In this document: positions 421 through 41,844 of the stretch, in pieces | How positions within the stretch are numbered: the first letter of the stretch is position 1 | Layout of the letters: every line of letters starts with the position of its first letter | NCBI GenBank assembly: GCA_001724265.1 | Contig: MEDY01000286.1 | Span: 1 to 41,844 of the forward strand | DNA: 41,844 bases | Direction of reading: 5' to 3' | Source of the DNA: Rhizaria sp. SCN 62-66 | Taxonomy: Eukaryota | Translations under genes and position numbers: made by a program | The notes under the pieces: model-generated | Told to the model about the DNA's origin: nothing | Databases searched by the model: none | What the model saw: only the letters and a program-made list of their open reading frames with translations

Positions 421-3400
421 TTCGCCTCGGCAGCAACAGCCTGGCTGTCCTTGCTCTTAACAGGCGAAAAGAGCGACGTGTGGTGTCCGCCCACGAGCGT
501 CGTCTTGGCAGTCTTAGGCGCAATTACACGGCCCGGAGACCAGTGCTGCTGCTGTTGCTCCAGGCGCTCAGCGACTGCGTAGCTCTGGTCTTGCGTCAGA
601 GGCTGGGAGCTGACAGCGAGGCCAGCACTACCGGCCGCCGCTCGCTCCGGTGACCTCGCGCGCGACTGCGAACGCGACTGTGAGCGTGACTGCGAACGCG
701 ACTGACCGTGGGACGGCGAAAGCACGCGCGTCGGCGAGAAGTTGCCACTCCGCGCACTCGCGCTCGCGCTGCCGCCGTTGTAGCCGCTGCTCTGGCCGTT
801 GTGCGAGAACGCAAGGAAAGGCCCGTCCGGCCGGAACGCCGGGTCGTTGAGCGAGCTGCCCGTGACCGGGGCACGGCCCGACAGCATGCCGTAGCTGTAC
901 GGAGGCTGAGCCTGTCGCGCTGTCGCGCCAGGAAGCCCGGACTGCAGCGGCGCCGTGCGGGGCGAGAACGACGGGTCCCACTGCCGCTGCTGCGCAGACT
1001 GCTGCGACGGGCCGCCGGCAGCAGCCACAGCGGCCGCAGCTTGCAGGGCCACGTCGTACTTGCGCTGGTCGCGGCGGTAGTCGGGATCCGCGCAGGCCGG
1101 GGGCGCGAGCGACCGCGGCAGCGACATGTGGCCCTCGCCTACGGTCATCTGCTGCTGACCGTCGCCGTAACCAACAGTGACGTTGTTGGCCGCAGCGGCG
1201 TAGTACGAGGCATCGCCGCCGTAGCTGTTGTTCAGACTGTCACGACGACCGTAGCTGTTGCTAAAGTCGTTGCCATTGCCGCTGCCGTTGCCGTTGCGGC
1301 GGCGCGGCGAGAAGGCGTCGTTGGCGGTCCCCATCGCGCTGATGCCGGCCGCGTCCGCCGCGGCGCGTGTGGCCCGGGGCGTCACCACGCTGGCGGCGCC
1401 CGAGGTGCTGACGGCGCCGGCGGCGGGGCGCGTGCGGCTGTGCGAAGCGGGCACGGCAGCGACGGGCCCGAAAGCAGACTGCGGCCGCGCGTCGGCGTTG
1501 GCCAGGTCGGCCTCGGCGGCGGCGCTGCGGCGGCGCTGCTCGGAGAGCTGGGACGCACGTGTGGGCCGCGGAGACGTCGGCGGCTGCACCGCGACCGGGC
1601 CTGGGGACGCGCAACGGGATGCAGAGCGCGATGCAGAGCGCGACGCAGAGGGGCTCATGCCAGAGCGGCCGCGGACGAGGTTAGCGTTGTTGTCGTAGAG
1701 CGCGGTGCTGCAGTTGGGCGAGATGAGGCGCTGCTGCTCCTCGTAGCACTGCTTGTGGTACTTAGAGTGCGGCTTCGGCTGCTGTGGCGGCTGATGTTGC
1801 TGCGACAAATGACTGTGAGCAGCGGCCGGGCGCGGGGCAGGGGCGGCGGTGTAGGGCGCGGCGGGCAGGCCGCTGCGGGCGGCGCCGCGCGGCGTGTGCG
1901 CGCCGGCGTTGCCGAGGCCAGCAGCGACGTTGTCGAAGGCAGTGTTGGTCGAGCGGGCAAACAGAGGGATGCTGGAAGGCTTAGCCTGCTGCTGAGTAGC
2001 GTTGTTTTTGTTGTCGGTGACGTCGTCATCGCCGAAAAGGGCTGCGTTCAGTGCGTCATCCTATGTGCTCTTGACATTGCTGCCATCGGCATTGTGCATA
2101 GTCTTGCTGTGATGTGTCTAGTATCGATCGTTGCTGTTGTCTTCGCCGCCGTGTTGCTGCGAGTGCGGGTCATAGAGTAAGTGATCGTCGTCCACAGCCT
2201 CGCCGCTGAGGGCGGCGCCGAACATCGGCGAGTGACTGTGAGCACCACGCGTACCGGAATTGCCGTCATCGCCGTCGTCCTCATCCTCGTCGGTGACTGC
2301 GCCAGAAGTCAGGCCTCCGTCAAACGCACCTTGTCCATCGTCGTCGTGTTCGGCATTCCCCCGCTGCTGCTCGCCGCGGTAGCTCTCGTAGTCGTCGTCG
2401 TCGGCGCCGTCGTCGACGACGGTGGCATTGTGGCGGCGCTGCTGCTCCGAGTCGCCGGAGTTGCGGCGACTGCTGCTCTTGCTGCTATCCGCCTAGTAGC
2501 GCGCGTCCTGTCCATGTCCCTGCTGTTGCTCGATCGCGTAGTCGGTGCTGTTGGCGAGCTCCTCAAGAGCAGCGCGCTCACGGTCGCGGAGCGCCTGCTT
2601 GGCGAGCGCCACGTCTTTGTCCGAGCCCATCACGCGGCGCCGGGAGCACTCGGAGGACTCCCCCGTCTGCTCACTATAACGGTCGATCGCACCCTCGCCG
2701 CGGCCGTTGCTGTTGCTGAACGTGTTGAGGTTGGAGAAGTCGAGGGGACGAATCAGACTGGCATACTTGCTGTCGGTGTTGTTGCCGTCACCGAGGCTGT
2801 GATCGCTATTGTCCGTGTTTGCATTGTCACTGTTGTTGATGTTATTGTAGGTTTGAGAGCCACGGCGAGAGTTTGCACGAGACGACGATGCCGCAGCTGC
2901 CTTAGAGCTGGCGTCGCCCCGCGTCACGTTTTTTGACTCGGAAGCAGAAGCGCCACCGTTGGTGACGCTGCCGGGACGGCTGTCGCTCGCGCCGTAGCCA
3001 TCGCTGTTGCCCGCATAACCGCTGTTCACACCGTAGTGGCTCGCGGCAGGACCGAACTTGGCGATGTAAGCCTCGTCGTCGTCACCCTTGCTGTGGCTGT
3101 GGCTGCCGTGGGGCGCGGGAAGAGCGCCACCGTAGTTGCCACCGGTCGCCGGCGCAGAGTAGCCAAGCATATGGTTGCCGTGACCGTTGCTCTGCTGCGC
3201 GGCTGAGGGCGCGACGCCGAGGTTGCTGTGGAGACGCGGCACCGGGTGGCGGGCGCCGCCGGGCGTGGCGGCGCTTGCCATCGCCGCAGCCTTGGCGGCC
3301 GCAACGGCCGCGGTGGCCTTGGCGTCATCGACACGGCCCAACGCGGCCGACATCTCACCGTAGCCGCCGTAGCCGACCGAGGAGCCGGCGCCGTAAAGGC

Positions 3401-6400
3401 CCACGCCGGAGGCCACGGCGGGGGCCGGGACCGGCACAGGCGCGGCCATGTCCGAGAGCACCCCGCGGCGGCGGTTGAACGGCAGACGCGCGACGTCGAC
3501 ACCCTCCTTGGCAAGCGCAGTGACGTAGGCCGCCACCTCGTCCTCGAGCTCGGCGACGCGCTCGCGCGCCGTGTCAAGCGCGGCCGCCAGCGCGCGCTTA
3601 TCCTGCAGCAGCGTGGCGACCTCGGCGCGCAGCTCGTCAGCCACGGCCTCGGCCGCCACGCAGCGCGCCTCCAGCTCGCGGGCCGCGCGCTCCCACACGG
3701 CCTCGGCCACGCTGGGGTACGGCGCCACCGACGCGCCCGTGACTGCGCCGGCGGTCGAGGCGCCGCCGTTGAAGGACGCGTTGGGGTTGAAGGCCGGGTT
3801 GGCGGCGTTGAGGCCCAGCACGCCGCCGTGCGCAAGCGACGTGTTCAAAGAGTGAGCCAGCGACGCGGCGTTAACGCCCGCGCGGTGGCCGAGCTCCTCC
3901 TGCAGCTGCGCGATGTGCGACTGCAAGAACGACGTCTTCTGGCCGGCCTCGAGCTTCGACGCCTCCAGGTCCGCCTCGAGCAGCGTGTGGCGGCGGCGGC
4001 GGCGCTCGATCTCCTGCTGCAGCCCCTGCGTATGCGCAGTCAGCTCGCTCACGCGCTGCTGTGCCTCCGCCAGAGAGGTCGCGGCGGCGCGACGTTGCGC
4101 GGCCTCGTTGTCTTTGTCAACGCGCGCGCGCTCGGCGGCCTTCTTAGCCTCGGCGGCCTCTGCGCGCGCGGTGGCGGCGTCGCGCTCGGCGGCCTCGACG
4201 CGCTCCATCGCGGCGTCGTCGGCCTTGCCGTGCTCACGCTGCGCCGCGTCGAGAGCGGCCACAGCGTCCTGGCGCGCCTTCTCGGCGGCCGCGGCGGCCT
4301 CGGCCTTGGCGGCGAGCGCGCCGTCCAGCTCGGCCACGCGCTCCTCGAGCGCCTGCTTGGCGGCGATGAGCCGCGCGTGCTGCGATTGGAACGATTCCAT
4401 CTCCGCAACCGTGGCAGCCTCACGTTCCACGGCCGCCTTGGCGCGCGTGCGCGCGTCTGTGACCGTGGCGCCGTGCGTCGCCAGCTCCTCCGCCAGCGCG
4501 CGGCGCGCGGCCTCGACCGTCGACAGCTGAGTCTTGAGCGCAAGGATCTCGGCCTCGCGCTGCGTCTTGTCCTTGGTTAAAGTAAGCCTCTCACGGTCGA
4601 GTTCCTCGGCCTGCTCCTCAAACTTGCGCTGCTTGACCTTGGCGTTGTCCACGGCGGCGCGCAGCTGCGCGGCGGCCTTGCGGATCTCGTCGCCCTCCTG
4701 CTCGAGCATCTCCTTCTTGCGGCGCATGATCCAGTCCATGTCGCCGAACGAAGCCGTCTGCTCCTGCTGCTCGCGCTGCACCATCGCCTCGAGCGAGACC
4801 ACAACCTGCTGCATCTTGTGGATGTGGTTGTCCTGCATACGCGACCGCTCCTGCAGGTTGCGCACGTGGCGCGCGAGCCGGTGTGCGAGGTCGAGCACCT
4901 CGGCGGGGTCCTGACGGTCGACGATGTGCGTGTCGGGCGGCGTCAGCAGCTCCGCGCCCGGGATCACGGTGCCCACGCCGACGCCGCCGCCAGCGCTCGT
5001 GGCCGCAGGCGTCAGCGACATGGCCTTGCGGTACGCGGCGGCCGCCAGCCCGCCCTTGGGGGCCTGGCCCGCCGTGCTGCTGTTGAGCGCCGAGGCCGAG
5101 CTCGCGTTGAGCATCAGCTGCTGCTGCTGCTGTTGGGCAAAGGTCTCGTCCGGCTGCAGCGTGGTGCCCAGCTCCTCCTCGGCGGCCTCCATGGCGGCCG
5201 CGTCGGGGTAGCCGAAGGCGCGCGCAAGTCGCGTGCGCAGCGACTGCGCGGCGGCGTCGGCGTCCTTGGCCTGCCCGCGCAGCGCAGCCAGCTCGTCCGC
5301 CTTGGCGGTGATCTCGCGCGCAAGCTTCCCGATCTCGCCGCGCGCCTCCTCCTCGCCGGCGCGCGCCGCGGCCAGCGCCTGCGCGAGCTCGCGGCCCTGT
5401 TGCTGCTCGCTCGCGCACTGTAGCAGCGCCTCGGCGAGCCGTCCGTCGAGCGCGCGCGCGCCCGCGTGCGCCTCCTCGACGCGCGCCTCGGCCTGCAGCA
5501 GCGCGTCCTGCGCCAGCGCCAGGTCGCGCTGCGAGAGCGTGAGCCCCTTGTCGAGCTCGTTCGCGCGCCGCTCCAGCCCCGCGCGCTCCTCGCGTAGAGC
5601 GGGGATCTCACGCAGCGCCGCGCGCATGGCCTCGGCCTGCGCGGCGGCCTCAGCGCGCTGCTCGCGGAGCCCCGCCACGGCGTCCCGCAGCGCCGCGGCC
5701 TCCTCGTGCGCACGTTCCACGGCCCTCACCGCAGCGTCGCGAGCAGCGGCGTCGGCTGCGGAGCGCTCCTCGGCGCGCGCGGCCGCGGCCTTGGCGGCCT
5801 TGGCGGCGTCCGTCGCGGCGGCCGCGGCCGCGGTCGCGGTCGCCGCCTCAGACTGCGCGGCAGCGGCCTCGGCGCGCGCAGCCGAGATGGCGGTGTTGGC
5901 CTCAGCGCGCGTGTTGTTGGTCTCGGCAACGGCCGCGGCAGCCGCGGCGGCCGCGGTGGCGGCGGCGCGCTGCTGGTTGGCGGCCTCCTCCTCGGCGGCC
6001 GCGCGGTCCTCGGCGGCGACAGCCGCGCGGTCCTCGGCCGCGGCGACGCGCTCAAGCAACCCGTCGATTGCAGCATCGTACTTGGCCATCACACCGTCAA
6101 ATTTGCCTTCGGTCTCGCGCCGCAGCTCCGCCAGCGCGGTGTCGGAGCGCGCGCGCGCGGCCGCGGCGTCGCTCTTGGCCGTGGCAAGCGCGTCCTCAAG
6201 CACGGAGACCTCGCGCGCGGCCAGCTCGGCGCGCGACGAGAGCTCGATGCGCTCGGCTGCGAGCTTTGCGACCTGCGCCTCGAGCATGCTCGCCGTCAGC
6301 GCGCGCTCTGCCACGGCGTCGTAGTGCAGCGCGAGTTCGTCGTACTGCGCAGCGGGGACTACGCGCACGCCCGCGTACGCGCCGCCGCTCTGCTGCTGCT

Positions 6401-8201
6401 GCATGTGAACGCTGTTGTTGTTGTTGTTCGTAGCGAAGAACGACGAGTTGAGGCCGGAGCGAGCGAAGGCGCCGCCGGTGTGCGGAGACGCCATGCCGGG
6501 GCGCGGGAACGCGCCGACGCCGCTGCTGCCCAGAGCGTGACCGCCGGCAACAGCGCCAGCGCCAGAGCCAGCAGAGGAGCGAGCGCCGAAGGGCGTGGCG
6601 GGGGGCATGCCGGCGGCGCTGGTGCCGAGGCCGAGGACGCCGGCGCGGCCGGGCCCAAAGCTCGGCGTCGTGCCGTACGCGGCGGCGCTAGAGTCCGCGA
6701 AGTGCACCGCGGACGCGGGGTCGGCGGCGGCGGAGCGCAGCGCGTCGACCGTGGCCTCGAGACTGCGCACCGTCACCTGCAGCCGCGCGGCCTCGCCCTG
6801 CGCGCGCTCGCAATCGCCGCGCAGCCGCGCCGCCTCGCCGGCGGCCTCAGCGGCGCGGCGTTCGGCGGCTAGCACGGCGTCGCGGCCGTCGCGCGCGGAC
6901 CGGACCACGCGCTCTGCGTCGGCGGTCGCGCGCGCGGCGGCGTCGCGCGCGGCGCTGAGCTCGGCCACAAGCTCGGCCTCGCGCTGCGCGGCGCGCGCAG
7001 CCGCGCGGTCGCCGTCGGCGGCCTGCTGCGCGGCGCGGGACTCGGCCAATGCAAGCCGCGAGCTCAGCTCGCCCAGCCGCGCCTCGGCGGCCGCGGCGGC
7101 GCGCGCGGAGGCGTCGGCCCGCGCCTGCGCGCCGTCGGCAACGGCGGCGAAGTGGTCGCGTTCTGTCTGCAGGCGCGCGTTGAGCGCGGCGAGCTCGCTG
7201 TTCTGGCCCTCGAGCGCCGCGCACCGGGCCTCGAGCGCGAGCGCGTTGCTGCTGTTGGAGCCAGCACTCGTGAGGGTACCGGTGACGGTGACCGTGCTGC
7301 GCGAGGGAGGGACGCGGTCGGTCAGCGCGACGCCGAAGCTGCCCGCGCCGCCGCCGTAGCCCTGGTCGACGCCGGGGTAGGCGGCAGAGGGGCGCGAAGG
7401 GGTGCGGACTGCGGAGGCGGGCCGCGGCTGCTGGGAGTAATACTGCTGCTGCTGCTGTTGCTGTTGCTGTTGTTGCTGGTGTTGCTGCAGCAAAGACAAG
7501 CGGTGGCCGCCGTAGCCCTCGCCGTCGGCCCCGGCGGCCGCAGCCGTGGGGGACACTCCGGCAGAGTGACTCGTGAAGCGTCCGCTGCTGCTGCCGCTGA
7601 AGCCCGAGGCGGACTGCTGCTGCTGCTGCTGCTGCAGCTGCTGATGTTGTGACTGGAGCTGGAGGCGCGAGAGAGGCTCGCGGCGCGGGGACGCGGGCGG
7701 GGAGTAGCGCGAGCTGGCCGCCGCGGGCGAGTGCGAGCGCGATGGCGCGTTTGACCCGGCATTCCCGCCCGCGGCAGCGTTGGCGGCCGCCAGCGCGCGG
7801 GCGACGCGCAGAGGCGTCGAGAGCGCCTGAGATGCCGCGGGTGAGTGTGGGTGTGCGCCGCCGCGGAGCCCCGGGGATGCGGTAATGAGCGCGGCAACGC
7901 CGTGCGCGGACGAGGTGTTGCGGACTGTGGAGGTGAGCGAGAGCGTCTCCTCAACTTCTTCGGCGAGGGCGGTGAGCATATCGCGCTCGACCACGTCGTC
8001 GATGTCGTCGATGTCCGAGGACGCAGCCGAGGAGCCGGGGTTCGGGTACGTAGGGTCCGTCACCGTGCCCGCGGGACCGCGGGAAGGGCTAAGGGACATG
8101 GCGGGGGCGCAGGCGAGGGCGGCGCGGGGCGCGAAATCGGCAGAGAAAAGGCGGTTAGAGCTAGAGGGACCTGCGGTTTTTGAAGCGCCTCTGTGAAACA
8201 T
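417..8201 (-). CDS. Giant coiled-coil / low-complexity protein (~2594 aa) read through three in-frame TAG codons
   Basis: ORFs 2493..8201 and 417..1808 are in the same frame. The 1809..2495 gap is open except for TAGs at 2493-2495, 2118-2120 and 2061-2063, keeps exon-like composition (D/G/N/S-rich peptide) and has no AT-rich intron. Long A/E/R/L heptad-rich segment at about 3500-7240. The 3' end may splice (AA|GTGAGT at 420). Confidence 0.8.
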
Positions 8202-8929: not shown

Positions 8930-11900
8930 TTACTAACACTGCTCGTCGTCATCCACAGGCCTGAACTGGCCTTTGACCGCAGTCTCCCGCACCAGCCCGT
9001 CCTTCTCCAGACTCGCCAGCGTGGCTGCAATGTCCGCGCCTGAGACAAAGCCCGTCCTCAGTGCGCGCGAGACTCCGGCGGTTAAGGCACCGCTGCTGTT
9101 GCTGTTGCTGCTGCTGTTGACAGACACGACGCCCGCGGCCGCCGCGGTGGTCTTGACCGTGGTGGCAAGCCATCCGGACATAAGAATGGGCGCGTTCAAG
9201 TGCGCGCAGACGTCTAGAGCTGTGACGCCGTGTGTCAAAGTTAAGCCGGGGCGGGACTCCAAAATGAAGCGCAGAGCTGTGAGCACGAGCAAGCTGAACT
9301 CACTGCTCACGGTCGCTGCGGCGGTGGCGGCTGCAGCAGCTGGGGGCGCAGTAGCAACAATTCTCAGATCCGGCTTCACAGAAGCTGAAGCGGTGTCGGC
9401 GCCCGCAACCTCAGCATCTCGTGAGGACGACGCGGAATGTGCACCAGTGCTGCCTCTGTTGGCGCCAGCGCTGCTGCCACTGGCGTTATTGCTGGCGACT
9501 GGCGAAGGCGCCGGAACAACAAACTGTAAGTGCGTCTCCGCGGCCGCATCAGATGCAGGCACACTACGCGACTGCGACGGCGAGCGCGATTGTTGGCGAG
9601 ACTGCGGGCGCGGGCGGGCGGGCGACTGAGTGAGGGGCTGTAGCGACGGAGGAAACGGATTATCGTCTTCATTGTCAACGTCGCCCATCGCGGTCGCAGC
9701 AGCCCTCACTGCGGTCTGTGCCTGGACCTGCTCGGCGTCTGTCATAGCAACAGCCGTCGCACCGTGCAACGCGGCGGGAGCAGCAGTCGACGCGGCAGTC
9801 TTGCTCTCATCGCACACCTCACTCACGAGTGCGGTGACAGCCGCCGTGTCTGAAGCCAATGCAGAGCTGTTCACTGCTGTTGTCGCGGTGCTCGCAGCAA
9901 AGGCGGGGGAGCGGCGCGTGATCGGCGTCGCAACATGCGGCGCGCGGTTTGTAGCAGGTTCCAGCGCGGGCACGTGGAGTGACGACGACGACGACGACGA
10001 AGTCGTGACGTCGCTTGAGCCGGCAACGATGTCGACGTCGTTGTCGTCGTTCATGGCCCCAGCAGGGCTCGCATTAGTGGCGTTGTTTGTCGCAAAGCTG
10101 CCGAGACTGACTGCAGCGCGGTGAGCCCCACTGTTGTCCGTGCCGCCGTTGGGGCGCTGACTGGTGCTGGCGCTGTGGCCACTGGGGCCACTGTGGCCAC
10201 TGGGGCCACTGGGGCCACGGGGCGTCAGGGGGATGAGCGGCGGCGCAGGGGTCGAGCCGGAGCCCACGGTCATGCGGGCGTGCGACGCAGAAACGGGGGT
10301 GCTCACAGCGCTCGCACTCGCGCTCGCGCCTGCGGGGGCCGCAGCCGTGGCGTTCGGGGCATTGGCAGAGGCACCAAAGGCTGAGTAGATCGAGTGACGA
10401 GAGCTACTGCTCGGGCCGTTACCGCCGACAACAACGCCGCCGCTGCCACTGGTGTTCTTGCCCATAGCAGCGTAAATGCTCATGCCGCGGGGCCGCTGCA
10501 TGACGCCGAACTGGAACAGCGAGCTCTGGCCTCTGCCGGCGCTGCTGGGGGAGTGGTTGTGCGCAGGAGAACTGTTGGCGGCAGCCTGGCCAGTTGTACT
10601 GCTCTGTGACGCGCTTGTATGGGCATCAGATGCGGTCGCAGCCGTGCCAGTGCTGGTCGCTGCAACGGTCAGATCTGGTGCTGCCCCGCCAGCGACATCA
10701 GCAGCGCCAGTCGCATTGGCTGCAGCGGTCGCGGCGGCAGCAGCAGGGGGCGCGGCAGCCACGCAAACCGCGCTGTCCTGGTCCTGAGTGAAGCTGACCG
10801 ACGACGGGGCCGGCGGTGCGAGCATCCGGTGCGCCTTGAGGGCCTCGTCGACGTCCGAGTCGGAGTCGGAGCTCGAATCAGAGCTAGAGCTGGATTCAGA
10901 GGCGGGGGACAAAGCCGGTGCAGCCGCAGACAAAGGATCACTCGCCGCAGCGGTGTTGTTGTGGTTGTTGCTGCTCGCACTGGCGCCGCTGCGGGTGCGG
11001 GAGCTAGCTGCAGCGTCCGCCGCAGCCGCGGTGTTATTGCTTGAGGCAGGAGAGTTGCTGCGAGTAGCGCGACGGTTGCTGTCCGCCGCAATTGCAGCAT
11101 TCGAAGGCAAATTGTTCGAGGCAGTTGCGACGTTGGCTTCGGTCTTGATGGCACGCTCTGCGCGCGGAGTCCGAGGCCTGTTGTGATTGCGCGTCCCTGC
11201 AGCGGCTCCATTGGCAGTCGCGGCGGCAGTGGGGTCTGGCTTGACGAGGGCAGCGCTATCGTCGCCGGTCCGGGTGTCAACGCTCTCATTCGCGGCACTG
11301 CTCGCGCTTGCGGCGTTGAGGCGGGTGTGGCTGCTGCCGTTGGCGTTGAACTTGACGCTGACGCTCGTGCTGATCTCGCTCGGTAGCTTCGCTTGATGCT
11401 GCGTGCACGACTGGCTTGTTTGCGGCAAAACGCGGAGACGCGACGCCACCGTGTCCGCGACCGCAAACCCGGCGCCGGCCCCGCTGATCGTGCTGCCGCC
11501 GGCGCTGTTTGGGCCAGCGTTGATGCGGGAACGCGACGAGAAGGTCGGGATGGAGCCGGGGCTGAGCGGCGTGTCGAGCAGGTCAGTGACGTACTCGGTC
11601 ACGCTGACTCCCAGCCCCGGGGTCCCTGCGCCGCGGCCGCTGTTGCTCTTGCTAGAAGTGGCCACACCAGCGTCAGTGGTGTCTGCGGCGCGTGTGGAGG
11701 ACGAGTCGGTCGCAGTCGCCGTCGAGCCTGGGCCGCGCGAAGCGACGGGGGCGCGGGCGGGTCCGTGGGGACTCTGCCCAGCAACAGCGGCGCCAGCCGT
11801 AGCGCTGGCGGAATCAGCAGCAGCTGGTGTGCCGAAGTGCGACAATGTGGAGCGAGTGCGCTTCGAGACGGGGGTGATCAGAGCGGCCGCTGCGGCGGCA

Positions 11901-13148: not shown

Positions 13149-14512
13149 ATGTCGGGCTCGCGCGCCGAAGAAGAGGAGCAGTTCCGCGATTTCTTCCGTA
13201 AGTCGGCGCGGATTGCGCCTCCGTCTGCTGCGCCTGCACCAAGGCTCCCCGACATTACGCTCGACACATTCGCCGCGTCCTTTAACGCCGAGACCCCCGC
13301 TGTGTCTGGCCAGGCCGGCGCTAAGAACCCGTTGCCAACCACGTCAGCCCTCGGCCCCAAGAAGGGTCTCGCGCTGCCCTCGAAGAGAAACGCATCAGCA
13401 ACCAATACAGCCACTGGCAACGGTGTGTCCAAGGCGGACGCTAGCGCTAGCAAGGTTGCATTTGACATGGAGCTCGTGGCGGAGACCTGGACCGAGCTGA
13501 GCTACAGCTTCCCCACCCTCACAGTCGCTGGGCTGGTGAACCTCGCGCGCTACCTCCAGCACCACTTCGGCGCGCTCAAGGCACTGCCGCCGCGCGCCGA
13601 CGGCGTCGCGCTCTCCACCGTTGTGCTTACGAACCTTGTCCGCGTTGCCTCTGCGCCCCGCACCGGCGCGGGCGCGAGCGCGGGCGCGAGTGCTGTGGCG
13701 GCGAAAACGCCCGCGAGCGGCACAGCTGTTGCGTGTGTTGCTGGCTGTAACGACGGCGCTCGCCTCGCTGCTGCTGCGGCCCGCGTGCTGCGCGCGCTTG
13801 CAGTCAGCAGCCTCCCCGCGCTGCTGGCGAGCGACCGTGAGCAGCTGAGCCGTTTCTGGGGCAACGTGGACCCCGAGGCGCTCGCGCTCGCGATGGCACA
13901 GAGCGTGGAGGACGCCACCTCTGCGGCCACGGCCGCCGTCACGGCCGCGAATACGGCCGCGGCTGCTGCGTGGGCTGGGGTGGCTGCTGCGGCGACGACG
14001 CCAGTAACGCTGAGCTCACGGTCAGATGCTGCAGACCGGGTGATTGCGTACAGCGCGGAACTCGCGTCGCCAATCGTCCCACATCAGCAGCAGCTACACT
14101 GCTCCCAGTTCTTTGGTCCGATGCCCCCCGGCGACGCCGCCGCCGTCCAGCGCAACGACGGCAGTAGCGCGGGGGAGCGCGGCCACAGCAGCAGCAGCAG
14201 TCTCGCCCGCAACGGTGGTGCTGCCGACAATAGCGACGGCGTTGACGATGGTGGCGAAGATGTTGCTGTTGTTGCTGTTGAAGGCAAGAACGATAAAATC
14301 AAGGACCGTCACGCTGCGGCGCTTGCACAGTCGGGAGCGCGCGTGCTCGTGCTGCCCCCAACTCGCGGCCGCAACAGCAACACTGTCAGCAATGGCGGGG
14401 ATAAGTCGTGTGGCCGTCGAGATTAGAAGAAACCGAGTGATCGTGACAGCGACTGCGGTGACTCTAGCTTCAAAGGTGAAGACGGTAGTGACGGTTATGG
14501 TAGCTATGGCAG

Positions 14513-14549
<37 letters not shown>

Positions 14550-17375
14550 AACATCTCCGCTGACGGCGACGATCATCGCGGCGGCGAGGCTGATGACGAT
14601 AGTGATGACGGGTTTGGTGATGTCAACTACGAAGACAACAGTGACGACGACGATGGCGAGGGCTATTTCACAGGCATTTCCAAAATCATCAACAACAACA
14701 AGCCCTTGAACTCCTCGAAAACTGCATCCGCCTTTGTGAGCACCGCAAGCCCCAGTGTGCCTCAGAGTGACCGCGACCCCGGGCTGCACTCCTGGGCTGC
14801 CCACGGTCGCCGGCTCCTGTCTCTCCTGCGGCTATGGGCACACCCGATTGCTCTTGGCTTCCGCTTACCCGCGTGCTTAGACTATGACATCGACGCCGAA
14901 ATGAAGCCGCCAGCGCCAAAGGTCGACACGCCTGCGACCAACAGCAAACCCTCCGCGACTGCTATGACTGAGCCTGAGCAGGCGTGGGTTGCGTACAGCG
15001 GTGTCACTGCGGCCTCACTTGTGTCAATGGTACAAAACCTGTTCCACTCGATCAGCGACGCCGCAGCCACGAACGCGCGCCTCTCCAAGGGTACCAGCAG
15101 CGGGCGGGAGCCCGAGGCACTCCGCCGTTGCTTAGTCAGCGCCGCCCCCTCTGTCAGCGCGCACGACCAGCGGCCTGAGCCAGAGTTGGCCGCCGCCGAG
15201 TCGGCCGCCGCCCACAGCCGGAGTCCTTGGCTAGTGACCGTCGACGTGGAGGAGGTTCGCGAGCTCACTGTCACTCTCCTCTCCGGCGCCCTCTCTCAGT
15301 CGCTGGCGCAATCAGTTGCGCGTGCGGGTGCGCAATCATCGGTGACGAGTGCAGTGACCGCAGCAGCCGTGACTGCAGACGCAGCCGTGGCTGTCCCTGC
15401 CGCGGTGCAAGCTCTGTCAACGATGCTGATGGTCACTGCTTCTGCGGCGACTGTTACTACGACAAATGAAGCGCCCTTAACGCAGTCAGGTGCGGTGCCA
15501 GCTGCTGTAGAGCGGTTCTTGTCCGTGATTAAGAGCAGCTGTGACCGCGCGCTCGCTACAGCCGCGGTAAGCGACACGAACGCGGTCGCTGCCAACGCTG
15601 TCGCCGAGGCGCTCGCTGCTGCGAATGGCCTCGCGACCGGCGCCGGTGCCAAGACTGTGAGCACCTCGAGTGCCATTGGGAACCGCTGGGGTGAGGAGTG
15701 CGCGTGGACCGCGCTTGCTGCCATCCACAACAACAGCAATAACAAGAACAGTCGCAAGAATCTCAGTTCGACGGATTTCAACATCGCATCTGGGGCCTCA
15801 CTGACGACAGGTGCTGCGGCGGCAGCGGCGGCTCTTGCGACGGCGCTGACTTCGCAGTCGTCTGCGGCGCGCGAAAGCGGCCTGGACTGCGCGTGGGTCG
15901 GTGAGCTCGTACGTTCCGTCTCGGCCGCGCTGCCCTCGCCGGTGCTTGCGTCGCTGCTGTTGGCAGTCACGCGCAGCGTTGTCGACGCAACACCTGTATC
16001 CGTGACTGCGGGCGGCGACGGTGACGCGGACGATCGCAACTACTGCCCCCGCATTATGGACTGTGCAACAGCCGCAAATCATACTATAGTGTCGTATCTG
16101 TCGCTGTTCCGCACGGTTTCTGCTACTGCTAGCCCAAGCGACTGCGAGCAGATCATCGATGAAGTGAGTGCAGACTGGACGGCACCGATTCCCACTCCGG
16201 TGCGTCCAGTCGATAGCCTCAGCCTGAGTGGCGGCGAAAATGTCATGACCGAGACGAGTGTGGTTGCAAGGCTCATTGAGTTATCTATTTCGCTCACATT
16301 CGCGATCAAATCAGTTGCTCAAACGATGACAACTCCTCCTGCCGCTATTGCTGCTGGTAACAAAACGTCCGAGTCAACGGAGATTCAATGCGCAGCCAAT
16401 GCCCTCAACAGTGATGCTCGCATGGGCATTCACGCTGCGCAGACCGCCCTTGCGTCAGTGTTGCGCCTCTTAGCTTGCCTTGCTGCGCACAGCTCCCAGG
16501 TCCTCACTGCTTTAGCAGCAACGCCCGTTGTATGGTCACTCCTTACGCACACGCCAGCCGCGACGACAGCGCTGCTATCGCCCGAGTCTCCTCTCACAGT
16601 CACCGATCTCCTTGCGTGGTTGTCGCTCGCCGACTCTGCTGCAATTGCTGCTGGGTCAAAGTCGCAGCTTCTACTGTCGGAGAGCGCTCTCACGATGGCG
16701 ATTGCAGCTGGTCTCGCCACAGGCCAAGCCGAAGCACAGGCCGCGGTTGATGCCGAGCTTGACGCACTCCTGGGCGACCTCTCTGACGACGAAAAATGTA
16801 CCGGTCAGACCAAGACGCAGGGATCAAGCGAAAGCTCTCTGGGAAAGGTTGCTCCTCCTTCTTATGTCACAGCATCGGTTGCTGCGCTGCGCAACGTCGC
16901 TGCTGCTGGCGTCGCTCGCGCTATCAGCGACGCAGTGACTACGACCACAGCGGCGGCGACCAGCGACTCGGCTGGAACTGCAGCAGCCATTCCGACTGCG
17001 CAGACAGTCTGGGCCGCGGTGAGCGCTGCAGTGGCCGCTTTAGTCGCTGTGATCAAGGTCCCGCACGCTGAACGCACGGCGCTGCTTGCTGCGATGCTCG
17101 CTGACAGCCATGGATTTGCTACGGCAGCAAGTGATGCTTCAGTAACTGCTGGCAGTGTATTACATAGCGCGATGCGGACGCTGAGCAATGCCATTGCAAA
17201 GACAGCTAACGCGTCGGCGACGGCCACTGCATCTAAGACTGTAACGCAAAACGATATTTCAGTTGCGACGTCCAAGGTGGCAGGGGGTGACGGCGGTGGC
17301 GACCAGCATCCGAATGGCGGAATGCTGCTGACCTATCATGTATTGTGTAAGGTAGTGCGCGCTCGGTGCGACTGA
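13149..17375 (+). CDS. Uncharacterised Ala-rich helical protein (~1408 aa) read through one in-frame TAG
   Basis: ORFs 13149..14426 and 14706..17375 share a frame. After TAG 14424-14426 the frame stays open as an acidic linker (KKPSDRDSDCGDSSFKGEDGSDGYGSYGSGDDDDDDDDDDDN...) into the second ORF, which has only a TTG start. Ends at TGA. Confidence 0.8.
14517..14549 (+). repeat. (GAC)11 microsatellite, poly-Asp in the post-TAG frame
   Basis: Eleven perfect GAC units, in frame with the read-through CDS. Confidence 0.9.
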
Positions 17376-17575: not shown

Positions 17576-17576
<1 letters not shown>

Positions 17577-32667: not shown

Positions 32668-33026
32668 ACGGCAATAATATCCTCACAATGTTTAAAAATG
32701 TTTATTTAGTTTAAGCACGCTCTTTATGTCACGATGAAGTTGCCCTGTAGATCGTGTTGTTATATAGACTTCCCCTTCACTGTTTACAATACAAATCGAC
32801 CTTACAGCTAGTCAATGATATGCCGCAAAAATGTTCGTACTACATGGACACTCCTCTCTGTTTAGATCGAGATCTGTAGGGATGTTCGAACTAATGTATT
32901 GTATTGTTGTGAAAGAGAGACACTGGCCAGTGTCACTTGCTAACGCAGCGCATGGCCTGTCGCGCCAAATAGACTCTGTGGGCCCCCCAAGCGCGTAATT
33001 TCAAGAGCAACATGCGTCATCACTAC

Positions 33027-33811
33027 TCACGTGCTCTGCTGCGGGGGAGCGTCCGTACCGGCGACCCCGAACTTGGCCTTAAGCGCGGCCAGCTCCGCCA
33101 GCCCGGCCTCCACCTTGGCGCGGCCCTGCTCGACCTTGCCCGCCGCGCTCGCGCCCGCGGTGGCGGCGGCAGCGGCGGCGGCGGCGGCGTTGCGGGAAGG
33201 CTTGAAGTAGACGACGGTGAGGTAGCGGCCGTCGACGTTGAAGCCATTGAGCCCGTCGACGGCGGCGCGCGCGTCGTGCACGTTGTCGTACACTACGTAC
33301 GCGCGGCCCTTAGACGAAGGGCCGTTGCCCCTGTGAAGTGAACGCGTTAGAGAAACAAAGAGGAAAGAGACGGCGGGAATGTGAGATAGCGACAAGGAAG
33401 AAACAATATGTGAAGACAGTAGACTGTCGAGATAAAACCAACATAAACCTTTGGATTACAAGTTATTTTACAAAAATAACTGAGAATATGCCTCATTTCA
33501 GGACAATGTGATGTGAGATATGCAGTGTAAGTGAGTTGGATGGACTTACATGCGGATCTGGCGGATGATGCCGAAGCGGCCGAAGAGGGTGTACATGTCC
33601 TCGCCGGAGTAGTTGAACGGCAAATGTTTGATAAAGAGAATACGTGACGCGTCAGCAGGGAGCTGTGGTTGGCGCACACTCTGTAGTGGGAGCGTGGTAT
33701 GGAGCAAAAAGAGGCGAGAATGAGTGAGCGAAGGCAAGAGAAAGTAGGGCGACGGAAGATCGGCGGATTGAGGGCGAGACGTACCATGCCAGTATGACCC
33801 AAAGAGTTCAT
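33027..33811 (-). CDS. SF3B6: Splicing factor 3B subunit 6 (SF3b14a/p14), RRM, 153 aa; exons 33811..33785, 33680..33550, 33330..33027
   Basis: Spliced product LPADASRILFIKHLPFNYSGEDMYTLFGRFGIIRQIRMGNGPSSKGRAYVVYDNVHDARAAVDGLNGFNVDGRYLTVVYF...LKAKFGV is colinear with p14. Both introns are GT-AG and frame-restoring. Ends TGA. Confidence 0.95.
33331..33549 (-). other. SF3B6 intron 2 (219 nt, phase 2)
   Basis: AT|GTAAGT...CTTCACAG|G joins RQIR-M-GNG. Confidence 0.93.
33681..33784 (-). other. SF3B6 intron 1 (104 nt, phase 0)
   Basis: ATG|GTACGT...CCACTACAG|AGT, pyrimidine-rich. Supplies the ATG that exon 2 lacks upstream of the RRM. Confidence 0.8.
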
Positions 33812-34414: not shown

Positions 34415-35599
34415 ATGAGCAGTATTGACCCCAACGATTTCCCGCCGCCGCCCCCGCCGCCGCCACCGGCGGACGAGGACTACAACGACGACGGCAACTA
34501 CCCCATGCCTCCGCCGCCGCCGCCCCCACCAGCCGACGACGACGCCACTGCTGCTGCTCCCATTAACAACAACGGCAGCAGCACGTCTACAGCAGCAACG
34601 GGTCCGCTGCCTGCGCCGAGCTTCACCGACTTCACCCCGTCTTTCCTCTCGGAGTCCGAGTCCTCCTCCTCGGCCTCCATCGCCCTCGCCATCCTCCCCG
34701 GCGTTGGCAGCGTCTCCAGCGCCGGCGCCGCGCCCGCGTTCGATCTGATGGCTGCGCTGGCGGACGCGCAGCACGAGGCCGCGCGCTCAGACGCCGCGTC
34801 GATCGCGGCCGCGGCCGCTGCCAAGGCCGCGCTGGCCTCCGGCGCGGCGGCCGCGCAGTGCAACAAGTGCGGCCGCGCGGGCCATACCTGGCGCGAGTGT
34901 CCCGAGAACCTGCACGAGGGCGATGACACGGTCCTCATCCAGGGGCTGCCGCAAGGCGCGGGCGTGACCGAGGCGGCCGTGGCGGCCTGGGCGGGGACCA
35001 TCGGCCGCGTGCGCCGCAAGAAGGGCAAGGGCCGCGACCGCTTCCTCGAGCTCGACTGCGTCAAGCTGTACCGCTCCGCGGGCGAGCTGCCCGCGTACCT
35101 GCTGGCCGCGGCCGATGGCGCGGACCGCGCCGCCGGCGGCGTCGCGCCGAACACGGTGACGGCCACAGTGACATTCGAGGACGCCGACACGGCCCCCGCG
35201 GCCGTCCGCTGGCTCAGCAACAGGCCTTTCACGGCCGGCGCCGACGGGGCCGCGGCCGCTGCGGCACCGGCGAGGGACAGCAAGAGCGGCAGTGCGAGTG
35301 GCGTTAAGGTGAGCTTGATCAAGAAGGAGCAGAACAACGCCCCGGACCAGTCCCAGGCTCAGTCTCAGGCTCAGGGACAGGCTCAGGGACAGTGGCAAGG
35401 GCAGGGGCAGGGGCAGGGGCAGTGGGGCGGCCGCGACCGCAGCGACCGCGACGGTGGCTACAGCGGCGGCGGCGGCGGCAACCGGTTCCAGGGGGGTGCT
35501 CCTGGCGGCGGCTGGGGCCAGCAGGGGCAGCAGCAGCAACAACAGGGACAGGGAGGCTGGGGCCAGCAGCAAGGTGGGTATTACGGCCGCCCCCAGTGA
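34415..35599 (+). CDS. RNA-binding protein: poly-Pro N-terminus, CCHC zinc knuckle, FUS/EWS/TAF15-type RRM, G/Q/W-rich tail (394 aa)
   Basis: CNKCGRAGHTWREC is CX2CX4HX4C. DDTVLIQGL...TIGRVRRKK...VKLYR...ATVTFEDADTAPAAVRWL...VKVSL follows the FET-family RRM pattern including the basic KK loop. Ends TGA. Confidence 0.8.
   Translation: MSSIDPNDFPPPPPPPPPADEDYNDDGNYPMPPPPPPPPADDDATAAAPINNNGSSTSTAATGPLPAPSFTDFTPSFLSESESSSSASIALAILPGVGSVSSAGAAPAFDLMAALADAQHEAARSDAASIAAAAAAKAALASGAAAAQCNKCGRAGHTWRECPENLHEGDDTVLIQGLPQGAGVTEAAVAAWAGTIGRVRRKKGKGRDRFLELDCVKLYRSAGELPAYLLAAADGADRAAGGVAPNTVTATVTFEDADTAPAAVRWLSNRPFTAGADGAAAAAAPARDSKSGSASGVKVSLIKKEQNNAPDQSQAQSQAQGQAQGQWQGQGQGQGQWGGRDRSDRDGGYSGGGGGNRFQGGAPGGGWGQQGQQQQQQGQGGWGQQQGGYYGRPQ
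35353..35424 (+). repeat. Coding 6/12-bp tandem repeats (QS/QA/QG/QW dipeptides)
   Basis: caggctcagtct / caggctcaggga / cagggg units encode QAQSQAQGQAQGQWQGQGQGQGQW. Confidence 0.8.
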
Positions 35600-36387: not shown

Positions 36388-39300
36388 ATGAGTTCCGCGG
36401 AGGCCCCCTCGGCCGTCCCGGCGCCCGCGTCCGGCATGGTGTCCCCCTCTGCGTCCAACGCGACCGCGATCGACGCCCGCGCGCAGTCCTCGGTCCACTC
36501 GCAGCTGCTGCTCAACGGCGGTACCTTCACCACCTCGGGGCTCTTTGGCGCGCAGCAGCGCTGCGTGTGGGTGTCCCCCGCGCTTGACACGGTCTTCTGG
36601 GCCAAGACGCGCGACCAGAAGAAGCCTTCCTCGGCCCCCGCGTCGGCCATCGTCTCCGCCGGCAACGCGCCCCCGGGCTCCTCATCGTCGTCGTCCTCGT
36701 CCTCGTCGTCGTCCGCCTCGGCCAGCTACGCCGCCTTCTCGCCCAACGGCGGCGCCGGTGGCTCCGTCAGCGTCACCGTCGTGTTCCGCGAGCGCGCCGA
36801 TGGCCCCACCACCACGCTCGACTTCGACTGCGTCACTCGGTGCGTGCATATAGTCTTATAGCATGCGTTATTTCGCTGCGAAATTTGGATTTATACGTTT
36901 AATTTAATGTGTTTACATAACATTTAGTACTCTCTGCTCATATGTCAAACTTTTCCTTTTCTGTGAGCTCATGTTGCGCCTTAAATTACTGCTATTTGTA
37001 TTGTTATTTACCGCTTGCCTCTAACAGCGAGGAGGCAGACACATGGGCGCGCGCGTTTAACTGGCTGCGCTCTGTCAACTCGCAGGTCTCTCAGCCGTTC
37101 AACTTCCAGCACAACGTGACGGTCAACGCTGACTTCACGTGGGAGCTGCCTCCGAACCAGTCGATCGAGTCCCTGTTCGAGCTCTCAACAGTGCTGGGTC
37201 AGGGCACCTTCGGCAAGGTCTTCAAAGCGCGTCACCGCGACACGGGCTTCGCGCTGGCCATCAAGCTGGTCGACGTACAGGGCCTCAGCGATGTGAGCGA
37301 GATCAAGCGCGAGGTTGACGTGCTCAAGGAGTGCCGCTTCAAGAACATCGTCGACTACTTCGGCTGCTGGGGCCCGGACCAGCAGCACCAGCTGTGGACA
37401 CTCATGTCCTACTGCCAGTTCGGCTCCGCCATCGACCTGCTCTACGCCGCGCAGGTCTACCTCAGCGAGGTTCAAATCGCCTTCATCATTGCGTCCACGC
37501 TCGCGGGGCTGCACTACCTTCACACGATCAAGCGCATCGTGCACCGCGACGTCAAGGCGCGCAACATCCTCGTCACCGGCAACGGCTGCATCAAGCTCGC
37601 GGACTTCGGCATCTCCAAGCAGGTGTCGACCGAGAACATCGGCTTCTGCACCATCGGCACCGGCTCGCCGCATTGGATGTCCCCCGAGGTCGTCCAGGAC
37701 GAGCCTGCGACGTTCGCCTCCGACATCTGGTCGCTCGGCATCACCGCCATCGAGCTCACGACGTGTCTGCCGCCGCGCGCGGACCTGGGCGTCGACGACG
37801 TCATGGCCGCCACGGTGCGCGACGCGCCGCCCACACTGGCTCCCGCGCCTGCGGGCCGTCCCGCCTGGTCGCGCGAGTTCGTCGACTTCGTCACCGTGTG
37901 CCTGCAGAAGGACCCCGCGATGCGGCCCACGACGGCGGACCTGCTCAAGCACCCCTTCGTGCGCATCGGCATCATGGAGAACCACTGCCTGGACCCCATT
38001 CTGCAGAAGGTCGAGGCGCAGCAGCGCCAGAAGAACGACGGCTCGGGCGGCGCCAGCAGCAGCAACAACGCCGCCGGCGCCAATAACGGCGGCGCCTCCC
38101 CGCGCGGCGGCCTTAACGGCGGCGCCGGTGCCGGCGCCAGCGGCAGCGCTAACTACGACGTGGACCTGGCCCCGATCAACAACCTTAACGCCGCGACGGT
38201 GCCCGGCAAGCGCGTGCTCTACTCGGACAGCAAGAAGTCCTCCGCGCTGGCCTCTCCCAACTCGCCCAGCAACGGGCCCGTCACTGCCTCCTTCGCGGCC
38301 TCCCCGAGCCTCAACGGGCCCTCGGCCGCGCGCTCCGCCAGCGGCGCCTACGCGGGCGCGGGCACCAACGGCATCGACTTCGACATCGACCTGGGCGGCT
38401 CGGCCTACAGCAACAACAGCGGCGGTAGCGGCGGCAGCGGCGGCAACAACAGCAGCAACGGTGACGGCGTCAAGACCGTCACGCGTGTGTCGTTCGAGGA
38501 CAACATGATTGCCTTCGCCTCGGGCATGACCTTCCGCATCCCGGACACGCTCTCGCGCGCGCTCTCCACGGCCGGCCGCGGCACGCCCGCCGCGGGCGCC
38601 ATCGCGGAGCGCTTTGCGGAGCTGTGTCTACCGCCATTCGTCGAGGTTGTGGTGGGCACCCCTGAGACGCGGTCCAGCACGCTGGGCAACTACAGCGCGT
38701 ACCCCGTGCGCGTGCGCGCGAACCCGGTGTTCGAGGCGCGGCCGTGCACGCTGCCGCTCGACATCGAGGAGGTGGGCACGCCGACGCTCGCCAAGCTCAT
38801 CGCCGATAAGGACACCGTGGTGGTGTACCGCCGCTACAGCGACTTCCTCTGGTTCCATGAGCAGCTCGAGTTTGCCTTCCCGGGCCTGCTGATTCCGCCG
38901 ATGCCCGGCAAGCACTTCTCGGGCAACTTCGACGACGAGATCATCAACGACCGGCGCCAGGGTCTCCAGTGGTACCTCGACTCGGTCGCGCGTCACCCGC
39001 TGCTCTCCAAGTCCTTCCTCTTCCACGCCTTCGTGCGTCTGTCCGCGGAGAAGTTCCCGGGGCTCAAGAAGTACGTCTCGCAGCGCATCGACGACCTGCG
39101 CAAGGCCGCCAAGCAGCAGGCGGCCGCGCGCGCCGGCAGCGACCTGCCTGGCGCAGCACCGGTCAACGCGCTGACGGGCAGGCCGATGTACTCGTTCCCC
39201 GCGCACGCGAGCGCGCTGACGGCCGAGACGACGTTCGCCGACGCCGTGAACCCGGTCAAGGAGAGCGTGGGCTTCTTCTCCAAACTCAAGTCCAAGGTTA

Positions 39301-40856
39301 TCTCGAGCAAGACTACGTCGCTGCTGCTCTCTCTGCCCGCGCAGACGCAGCTGACCGTCGCCGCGCTCTACGCCAAGGACATCGTGTGGTACCTGTCTCA
39401 TCTAGAGCAGCAGTACGGCCGCCTCGACGCTGGCCTCACGACGGCGCTCGACGCGTGCGCCAAGCTGGGCATGGCCGTCTCCAAGTGGGTCACCTCCGCG
39501 GACCAAGGCCGCCAGGCACTTACGATCGCGACCGAGGCTGCGCGCGACGCCGCGCCCGTGTCGTCGTCCGCCGCCGTCATCTCGCTGAGCGACACCGAGA
39601 CGGCGATCGTGAGCAGCTACGAGGCCGCGCGGCAACAGGCGCTGGCGAAGCAGGCCGCCGAGGAGGAGGAGCAGCGCCGGCGCGCAGAGTCCTTCGCCGC
39701 CAAGGGCGCTGCCAGCCGCGGCAGCCACACGGCGAGCGCAACGCCCTCGCTACGCGGCCCGCCGCCGTTCCCCGGGACGATCGTGCCGGGCGCCGGTGCT
39801 GCGTCCTCCGCCGCCAGCGCCGCCGCCAAGCTGCCTAAGTCGGCCAAGAAGGCCGCGACGGTCGCCGCGGCGGCGGCCCGTAGCGCCACCGCGGGCGCCG
39901 CGGGCGTGGCCGGGGACGCGCCGTGGATCGAGTTCGAGACGGCGCTGGGGCCCGGACTGACTCTTCTCGCGCAGAGGGTCGCCCGCGACCTGGGTCCCGT
40001 GCTCGCAGAGCGCTGCACCAAGCTCAACGCCTTCGGGCTGTATCCGGCCAAGTTCTACCGCAAGCTCTGCGGCAGCGTCCGCGACATGATCCGCAGGTAC
40101 GGCGTACCGACCGCAACTTTGACGGGACGGGATAGGATATGAGTTGAATATGATGCTTTCTTTTTAAAATTGTTGGTCTATCTGCTATAATTTCACGTTG
40201 TCATCTCATTTGCGCCCTCTTTTTTACACCCTTTTTTGTTACTCTATCCAGGCGCGACTCGCTGCTGCTCTCTTGCCGCAAGGAGCTAAAGGACGACCCT
40301 ACGATGACCACGCCTGTGGCCCTGGACTCGGCCGAGCCCTCGTCCTCGGACGCCCCCGCGCAGTCCGAGCCCATGCTCATGACTGGCAGCAACGTCCGCG
40401 TCATCCCCGCACCCGCCGACCAGGTACCTTAACTCGTCGACTTCTGTCATAATTTAATCTGGCACTTTTCACTTGAATCATCTTCAAGTTCAACATGCGT
40501 ATGAGTAAAATATGGCAAGGCAAAGTTTTATCTCACAGCATCAATATTTTGTGTTTTTCGACTTATTTCTTGATTTCCTTTTCTCCTTTCAGGCGCGCGC
40601 GCTGTCCCTGCCGCGCACGGCGAGCCGCGGCCGCCTGGACTCGTTCTCGCAGTCGGTGCTGGCCGAGGTCGCGCTCTTCCAGGCGCAGAAGCAGTGCCAC
40701 TTCCTGTCGATCACGTCCGCGCTCGCGACGAGTCAGCGCGAGGCGGCCGAGAAGGAGGCCGCGGCCTGGGAGGGCATCGTCGGCACGCTCGATAGCATGG
40801 AGGAGGACTGCCAGTGGGCCGACCTCTCCTTCGAGACCAGTCTCGTCGCGCTCTAA
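36388..40856 (+). CDS. STE20-family Ser/Thr kinase with N-terminal PH-like and CRIB-like motifs and C-terminal PX + BAR-like region (~1318 aa); exons 36388..36839, 37028..40096, 40252..40423, 40593..40856
   Basis: Kinase motifs GQGTFGKV, AIK, HRDVKARN, DFG, GSPHWMSPE, DIWSLGIT. CRIB-like VSQPFNFQHNVTV. PH C-terminal helix TLDFDCVTREEADTWARAF is formed across intron 1. PX motif RRYSDFLWFHEQL...IPPMPGK...RRQGLQWYL...HPLL. Three GT-AG introns keep the frame to TAA. Confidence 0.92.
36840..37027 (+). other. Kinase intron 1 (188 nt, phase 2)
   Basis: CG|GTGCGT...CTCTAACAG|C, AT-rich, frame-restoring. Confidence 0.9.
40097..40251 (+). other. Kinase intron 2 (155 nt, phase 2)
   Basis: AG|GTACGG...CTCTATCCAG|G gives MIRRRDSLLL. 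Confidence 0.85.
40424..40592 (+). other. Kinase intron 3 (169 nt, phase 0)
   Basis: CAG|GTACCT...TTCTCCTTTCAG|GCG, frame continues to TAA at 40854-40856. Confidence 0.85.
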
Positions 40857-41363: not shown

Positions 41364-41844
41364 TCAGCGTCTTTCATTTGCATGATATATACACAGATAC
41401 GGGTTCTAACGGAACAAAAAGTCAGGAAACGTGTTCAAAATAAAGCGAAAAAATCGTTGTTAATTTAGGTTTGTAGGATACTTTCTTTTCACTGTTTTAC
41501 GATGGGTAAAGCTCACCGCGTCCCGTGGGCGCGATGTGCTGGATTTCTAACGGCTCGCAGGAAGAGGCGGTCCGCGCCTCTTTCTTGGAACCTCAGATCG
41601 GTCCTCTACGAGCTTCTTGCGAGCGACACTTTCCTGTAGCGCGCTCAGAGGCTTGGACGCCGGGAGGTCCGCAGGGCACGTCGAGTCACAGTTACTACCA
41701 CAATAACACTTATCAGACTGGGGAGTTAGTTTGCTCATGTAATCGTAGGCTTTGTCCACACTCTGTTTGAAGCCGGACACGATGTTGCAACCTGTGATCA
41801 GCCGCATAGCATGCAGTGTCACTTTGATACGCAGGTTGTTAGCC
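41364..41844 (-). CDS. 3' end of a gene entering from the right edge (partial), with an in-frame TAG and a putative last intron 41406..41516
   Basis: Open from the window edge (ANNLRIKVTLHAMRLITGCNIVSGFKQ...CYCGSNCDSTC...PPLPASR), TAG at 41547-41549, then KSSTSRPRDA up to GCG|GTGAGC...CTGACTTTTTGTTCCGTTAG|AAC and a short exon to TGA at 41364-41366. Confidence 0.55.

Follow-up and report, generated by a model that had tools for sequence, protein, structure and literature searches.

The 41.8-kb contig MEDY01000286.1 (Rhizaria sp. SCN 62-66, assembly GCA_001724265.1) was analysed over its whole length and is called the window below. It raises the question of whether UAG terminates translation in the nuclear genes of this eukaryote or is read as an amino acid. 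Five TAG codons interrupt otherwise continuous coding frames in three genes of the window, and one of them falls into the conserved domain of a TsaD/Qri7-like protein. We conclude with a probability of roughly 0.78 that UAG is decoded as a sense codon, UAA and UGA being the terminators. The same code had been proposed in a preliminary description made from the window sequence. It stands as the best explanation owing to the TsaD site, the continuity of the frames and the TAA and TGA gene ends; the genome-wide scope of the proposal goes beyond the five codons of one window, and two of the TAGs cited for it do not support it.

In-frame TAG codons of the window

All seven TAGs of the preliminary description are found at their positions and on their strands, and the bases that follow them at position +4 (G, A, G, A, C, T, A) are confirmed. 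Their placement within coding frames holds for five (2061, 2118, 2493, 14424 and 22930). TAG 8933 can be read in two ways, and nothing points to coding sequence at TAG 41547. The sites are as follows, with codon scores in bits per codon:

2493..2495, minus strand: TAG 1 of gene G1; flanks +0.42 and +0.37 in frame, flank GC 0.68-0.69
2118..2120, minus strand: TAG 2 of G1; flanks +0.37 and +0.34 in frame
2061..2063, minus strand: TAG 3 of G1; flanks +0.34 and +0.23 in frame
14424..14426, plus strand: TAG of the orphan gene G3; codon score +0.22 before and +0.33 after, best of the six frames
22930..22932, minus strand: TAG of the TsaD/Qri7 domain, within GGVMPSVAAR-TAG-HRKH
8930..8935, minus strand: TAG-TAA at the 3' end of gene G2; last sense codon and stop, or a tandem stop
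41547..41549, minus strand: codon scores -0.30 and 0.00; no periodicity of GC at third codon positions (GC3) at 41401-41700

The TAGs at 2061, 2118, 2493, 14424 and 22930 are internal to continuous coding sequence. Once TAG is read as open, three long frames appear: 417-8216 on the minus strand (2599 codons, 3 TAG), 13101-17375 on the plus strand (1424 codons, 1 TAG) and 20983-23430 on the minus strand (815 codons, 1 TAG). If TAA or TGA is opened instead, the coding open reading frames (ORFs) gain at most 111 codons and no in-frame merge results. Opening TAG also fuses some antisense frames in GC3-rich genes, so the merging of frames by read-through is little proof alone. Continuity was scored with a codon-usage model trained on 6,846 codons outside the test segments and applied in all six frames. 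The nine segments beside the five internal TAGs score between +0.17 and +0.42 bits per codon, the claimed frame being the best of six in each case, and none of three intergenic controls rises above -0.35 in any frame. The GC content within 150 nt on both sides of the five TAGs is exon-like (0.52-0.73); downstream of the TAG-TAA of G2 it falls to 0.40. Along G1 the same codon phase has the highest GC throughout 601-8100, a stretch that includes the three TAGs of this gene; the one exception is the bin 2101-2400, in which two phases differ little in GC (0.72 and 0.71). No frameshift is needed in any of the gene models.

The 11,193 modelled codons contain 5 TAG, 0 TAA and 0 TGA in frame, a count that is partly circular; the five other frames of the same stretches contain 291 TAG, 202 TAA and 781 TGA. 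The in-frame frequency of UAG amounts to ~0.45 per 1000 codons. Two of the three TAGs of G1 (2115-2120 and 2493-2498, minus strand) stand directly after a TAC (Tyr) codon, reading ..ARY-TAG and ..DRY-TAG.

The TAG of the TsaD/Qri7-like gene and the residue it probably encodes

The TAG at 22930 lies in a TsaD/Qri7-like gene, both ORF pieces of which are matched by Pfam family PF00814. It occupies position x of the conserved motif GGV.P..A.R-x-H and is aligned without a gap to one residue of the solved TsaD chains in the PDB, which is H or D there. Because the alignment is gapless at this point, no intron can conceal the TAG. An intron concealing the TAGs was ruled out on this ground and by the exon-like GC of their flanks. 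The neighbouring columns are strongly constrained: among 114 diverse homologues, A at -3 and R at -1 are invariant and H at +1 is present in 111. The window protein keeps all 26 invariant columns of the 115-sequence alignment, 9 of them ahead of the TAG and 17 behind it, the latter including H146, H150, S223, G224, D246 and D247. Since invariant columns stand before and after the TAG, both halves of the domain are needed in one chain. Further on, splicing of a 137-nt phase 1 intron (20926-21062, donor GTACGT, acceptor CACAG) rebuilds the segment G-YTALSFSGMKS. With its invariant columns kept and its intron intact, the gene is judged not to be a pseudogene.

The composition of the TAG column in the 114 homologues is E29 Q22 A18 R14 D11 S7 N6 H3 C2 K2, with zero L, W or Y among them. 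An earlier alignment of 57 matches was given little weight, as one bacterial clade dominates it (47 E). On the basis of this one column, a polar residue (Gln or Glu) is probable at UAG, and Leu, Trp and Tyr are disfavoured. The surroundings of the four TAGs outside TsaD are acidic, hydrophilic and of low complexity; a polar residue would suit them, but this is no proof. Word-index searches with the TsaD region returned no relative above ~35-44% identity over most of the query, and the matches were mostly of bacterial type.

The predicted TsaD/Qri7-like protein is unusually built. TsaD proteins are typically 330-450 residues long; this one has ~1,720 residues, with long Ala/Ser/Asn-rich insertions within the domain and an extension of ~680 residues after it.

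Gene ends and related loci

At least nine genes are present in the window, and both strands are represented:

G1, 417..8201, minus strand: ~2594 codons, coiled-coil and low-complexity; stop TGA 417-419
G2, 8930-12871, minus strand: no Pfam match; 3' end TAG-TAA
G3, 13149..17375, plus strand: 1408 codons, no known family or Pfam match; stop TGA 17373-17375
TsaD/Qri7-like gene, 18119..23415, minus strand: exon 1 21063-23415, exon 2 18119-20925; stop TAA 18119-18121
G5, 23890-26055, plus strand: no Pfam match; stop TGA
G6, 26587-32667, plus strand: no Pfam match; stop TGA
RRM gene, 33027..33680 (5' limit approximate), minus strand: intron 33331-33549; stop TGA 33027-33029; start-codon exon not located
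G8, 34412-35599, plus strand: no Pfam match; stop TGA
PH - STE20-like kinase - PX gene, 36388..40856, plus strand: exons 36388-36839, 37028-40096, 40252-40423 and 40593-40856; stop TAA 40854-40856

Six of the nine genes end in TGA (G1, G3, G5, G6, G8 and the RRM gene, which we take to be SF3B6/p14-like) and two in TAA (the TsaD and kinase genes); in G2 the TAG is followed directly by TAA. The earlier statement that the genes end in TAA or TGA is accordingly borne out by eight of them, and G2 is ambiguous. In this small set of nine genes no end is an unambiguous TAG. The TAG at 8933 may be the last sense codon of G2, and it may equally be a true stop.

The ends of the two TAA genes can be examined further. 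Codon bias is lost past the TAA of the TsaD gene. In the kinase gene, in which Pfam identifies Pkinase and PX, the long ORF is closed by a TGA (40140) that is intronic. Two further exons match P0006, a relative of 70% identity, and the gene ends at the TAA 40854-56, the exon ends being taken from the sequence and the match to P0006. The resulting C-terminus coincides with the ends of P0006 and of two other relatives, P0007 and P0008. UAA and UGA are kept as terminators in the window; neither occurs in frame in the partly circular count of modelled codons. The window protein shares with the same three relatives the domain order PH - STE20-like kinase - PX - conserved C-terminal helix region. 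The product recorded in databases by an ORF caller (P0005, 1066 aa) lacks the first and the last two kinase exons, the introns between them carrying stops.

A scan of metagenomes with the kinase alignment gave nine loci, of which L001 (47% identity) is the sole real relative; it is one of the three relatives just named, in this case readable as DNA. The first stops of its nine long ORFs are TAA in six, TGA in two and TAG in one, and none of these ORFs has a TAA in frame. The support that L001 gives to TAA as a stop is not circular, because six of the nine long ORFs end in this codon and none contains it in frame. An in-frame TAG at 15181 of L001 lies upstream of the likely start codon. The kinase is the only gene that L001 and the window have in common, and no tRNA gene was found on L001 or on the other related loci scanned. 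A further candidate, L010, taken from a scan of genome contigs, was rejected as an unrelated bacterial kinase. The best named matches of the kinase are from chytrid fungi and Dictyostelium (40-42% over the kinase domain), which is too distant for placement of the organism; an Atlas search with the PX and C-terminal part returned generic PX-domain clusters only. From the literature (PMC11687900), a relationship to aphelids or green algae may be considered.

Stability of the TAGs in other assemblies and strains

The TAGs persist in different assemblies and strains sampled between 2015 and 2025. Seven contigs carry the ORF closed by TAG 14424, and 5 the one closed by TAG 22930, with a same-length variant that has two residues changed on one more. 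Run X4, which comes from another study (2025) and is ~1% divergent, carries both TAG 14424 and the TAG+TAA at 8933 unchanged. The X4 contig over 14424 has 4 differences from the window, all of which are listed, and none of them is at the TAG; all differences of the X4 contig over 8933 are listed as well, again with none at the TAG. In run X3, from a third study, the TAG+TAA at 8933 is covered with zero differences. Read-depth figures were summed over cross-mapping low-complexity contigs and have been left unused. Contigs of a polyA metatranscriptome (run X5) lie on G1, G2, G3 and exon 1 of the TsaD gene.

The strain differences downstream of the TAG in G3 comprise 8 synonymous and 6 non-synonymous changes (n=14). 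The synonymous share expected for random changes is 0.258 (P = 0.013), and 0.340 if transitions only are considered (P = 0.064). In G2, 5 of 16 differences are synonymous and no constraint is seen. An exhaustive search with G3 among 1.84 billion representative proteins gave 3 matches, all of them the window's own ORF pieces broken at the TAG. G3 looks like a lineage-specific gene under selection, to judge from the pattern of changes in its sequence. The X4 strain also has an in-frame 3-nt CAA insertion at 14689 in G3, and its differences are denser in the spacer 8217-8929 than in the adjoining exons.

Alternative explanations

Several facts weigh against UAG as a sense codon of the whole genome. 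The claim is for the whole genome, while the evidence comes from a single 42-kb window, with five codons spread over three genes and one site in conserved sequence. Four of the five TAGs lie in low-complexity, non-conserved sequence without homologues. The count of 5 TAG, 0 TAA and 0 TGA is partly circular in that the gene models were built allowing TAG only. It agrees with the earlier assertion that all interruptions are TAG, but less follows from this than might seem. Codons here mostly end in G or C, and the majority of nonsense mutations by one base in genes of this kind would give TAG, so the fact that all five are TAG is weak evidence on its own. The first stop of G2 is a TAG with TAA right behind it, and L001 presents a similar picture: its ORF 18247-19764 (minus strand) has TAG as the first stop with a TAA one codon on, and there is no in-frame TAG inside its genes. 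For the X4 contig over 22930, 2 of its 5 differences are listed. Among the X5 RNA contig pieces listed, none covers a TAG.

Part of these facts would be accommodated if UAG were mainly a terminator and the five sites were leaky, being read by a near-cognate tRNA through programmed readthrough or in a context-dependent ambiguous code, so that short and long products are both made. Such ambiguous stop/sense codes are listed in the literature (10.1101/2022.04.12.488043). The rarity of the codon in frame (5 in 11,193) and the TAG at the end of G2 with TAA directly behind it would suit this explanation as well. It is nevertheless unlikely. A TsaD truncated at 161 residues loses 17 of the 26 invariant columns, H146 and H150 included, which means that high-efficiency decoding would be needed, and in G1 the losses would be compounded over three TAGs spaced within 145 codons. 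The +4 bases of the five sites (G, A, G, A, C) and the codons that follow have no common motif, in agreement with the preliminary description, which had noted that there is no shared readthrough signal. Under the standard code translation would really end at the TAGs, which would be nonsense mutations of decaying genes or borders between separate genes that are in the same frame by chance. ORF callers do split the genes at these points, the nonsense changes arising in genes with G/C-ending codons would be mostly TAG, and G1 and G3 have no homologues able to prove their continuity. We consider this improbable: conservation of the TsaD domain extends to either side of its TAG, no gene model contains a frameshift, splice sites are intact, and at none of the five sites is there an AT-rich spacer or a break in the in-frame coding score. 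Moreover, the 179 open codons between TAG 14424 and the next ATG have a chance of ~0.02 given how often stops occur in the other frames, the strain differences downstream of this TAG are biased to synonymous ones, and the TAGs are identical in samples from 2015 to 2025.

The opposite extension of the code, with UAA and UAG both sense as in ciliates and dasycladaceans and UGA as the sole stop, is very improbable. It would require that in-frame TAA is missing here as A-ending codons are rare; indeed, with 81 CAA against 380 CAG only about one TAA would be expected beside 5 TAG. Six of the nine genes do end in TGA, and the two codons usually change together (PMC5304391, PMC11687900). This explanation is opposed by the TAA of the kinase gene, which lies at the C-terminus common to three relatives, by the TAA of the TsaD gene, after which the codon bias is lost, and by the zero in-frame TAA in 11,193 codons. 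That the TAGs are assembly or sequencing artefacts is hardly credible. The window does come from a metagenome assembly and may itself derive from X1, the run that matches it best, but ORFs ending at the TAGs are found on 5-7 contigs and on the variant contig, and contigs of other studies carry TAG 8933 (X3 and X4) and TAG 14424 (X4).

Gene content, composition and origin of the window

The window consists of GC-rich gene bodies (up to 0.75 GC per 2-kb window) between AT-rich spacers. Five canonical GT-AG introns of 137, 155, 169, 188 and 219 nt were read from the sequence, which confirms the size range of 100-220 nt given for them before. Once they are spliced out the frame is restored, as is the conserved protein sequence in the genes that have homologues. 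They are located as follows:

20926-21062, minus strand: intron of the TsaD/Qri7-like gene, donor GTACGT
33331-33549, minus strand: intron of the RRM gene, donor GTAAGT
36840-37027, plus strand: intron of the kinase gene, donor GTGCGT
40097-40251, plus strand: intron of the kinase gene, donor GTACGG
40424-40592, plus strand: intron of the kinase gene, donor GTACCT

In the RRM gene the two halves of RRM_1 are found by Pfam on two separate ORFs, and the GTAAGT..CACAG junction between them was read from the sequence. The GC content is 0.34-0.41 in the introns (n=5) and 0.37-0.45 in the intergenic spacers (n=8). Introns of such GC inside exons of GC 0.6-0.75 make the exon borders visible by GC alone. 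At the right end of the window (41550-41700) there is a GC-rich patch (0.62) without codon periodicity or a clear ORF; it may be an untranslated region or the edge of a gene running off the window.

The window is nuclear DNA of a compact, intron-poor, GC-rich, uncultured eukaryote. The remark of the preliminary description that it does not resemble a typical ciliate is upheld by its GC-rich exons, introns of 137-219 nt and TGA as the main stop, and no ciliate traits were seen. Matching DNA occurs in bioreactor, wastewater and activated-sludge metagenome runs of six studies from 2015 to 2025. The products of the window ORFs are recorded from Logan and ENA assemblies only. No tRNA gene was found across the 41.8-kb window, Rfam has no match anywhere in it, and a Pfam scan of eleven window ORFs gave no match to eRF1.

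Possible mechanism and significance

If UAG is sense in this organism, a tRNA whose anticodon is CUA would read UAG and not UAA. It would arise most simply from tRNA-Gln(CUG) or tRNA-Glu(CUC), since one anticodon change is enough in either case. Translation termination factor eRF1 would at the same time have lost or weakened its recognition of UAG, and UAG would stand for a polar residue, most likely Gln or Glu, as a rare codon. This follows the model drawn from published cases, in which a CUA-anticodon tRNA unable to pair with UAA is combined with weakened recognition of UAG by eRF1 (PMC5304391).

UAA and UAG almost always change their meaning together, and only a handful of nuclear lineages are named with UAG alone as a sense codon (PMC5304391, PMC11687900). 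If the present case is true, a further one outside the ciliates would be an independent data point on how UAA is uncoupled from UAG. The chances are about even that the window represents an independent, undescribed UAG-only reassignment, probably to Gln or Glu, in a deep eukaryotic lineage recurrent in wastewater reactors, and perhaps at an early stage. An early stage is possible because UAG is very rare in the genes, stands beside UAA at one gene end, and has apparently its standard meaning in the nearest relative (47% identity). A rare UAG in a GC-rich genome, next to a relative with a seemingly standard code, may thus show early codon capture. There is also a practical consequence: standard gene callers would cut the proteins of this organism at every UAG, as is visible in the database entries, and its genes are therefore expected to be mis-annotated in metagenome catalogues.

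Comparison with known UAG-only codes

The first system to be compared is exLh, an uncultured sainouroid rhizarian (Sainouroidea) in which nuclear UAG encodes Leu while UAA and UGA are stops (PMC5304391). It is described as insect-dwelling, with 384 in-frame UAG in 71 transcripts, and the assignment to Leu is near certain. It resembles the present case in that UAG alone is found in frame and that the organism is a non-ciliate eukaryote known from sequence data only. The differences are considerable: the window has 5 UAG in ~11,200 codons, its informative site has no Leu in 114 homologues, and the organism is found in wastewater reactors rather than in an insect.

In Iotanema spirale (Fornicata) UAG encodes Gln and UAA is a stop (PMC5304391, PMC11687900). 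NCBI table 15, which reads TAG as Q, would be the code most likely to match if UAG stands for Gln; the commonest residue at the TsaD column is Q or E. The window differs from Iotanema by its high GC and its long low-complexity proteins, and its amino acid is a candidate Gln or Glu. Reassignment of UAG alone is also known in Protocruzia tuzeti (Gln), in the green alga Scotinosphaera (Ser) and in several phyllopharyngean ciliates (Gln or Leu) (PMC11687900). These cases are alike to ours in the codon involved, and some of them, too, were derived from environmental genome data. A Ser of the Scotinosphaera type is present at the TsaD column in only 7 of the 114 homologues. Literature searches, supplements aside, returned no described UAG-reassigned eukaryote from wastewater or sludge.

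The more common codes with both UAA and UAG as Gln are known from ciliates, Hexamita, Streblomastix, ulvophytes and the aphelid Amoeboaphelidium (PMC11687900). The window shares with them the change from stop to sense, the probably polar residue and TGA as the dominant terminator. It differs in that TAA still terminates, at the C-terminus of the kinase as fixed by homology and at the end of the TsaD gene. The code of the window would thus work like the known UAG-only codes and is plausibly of independent origin.

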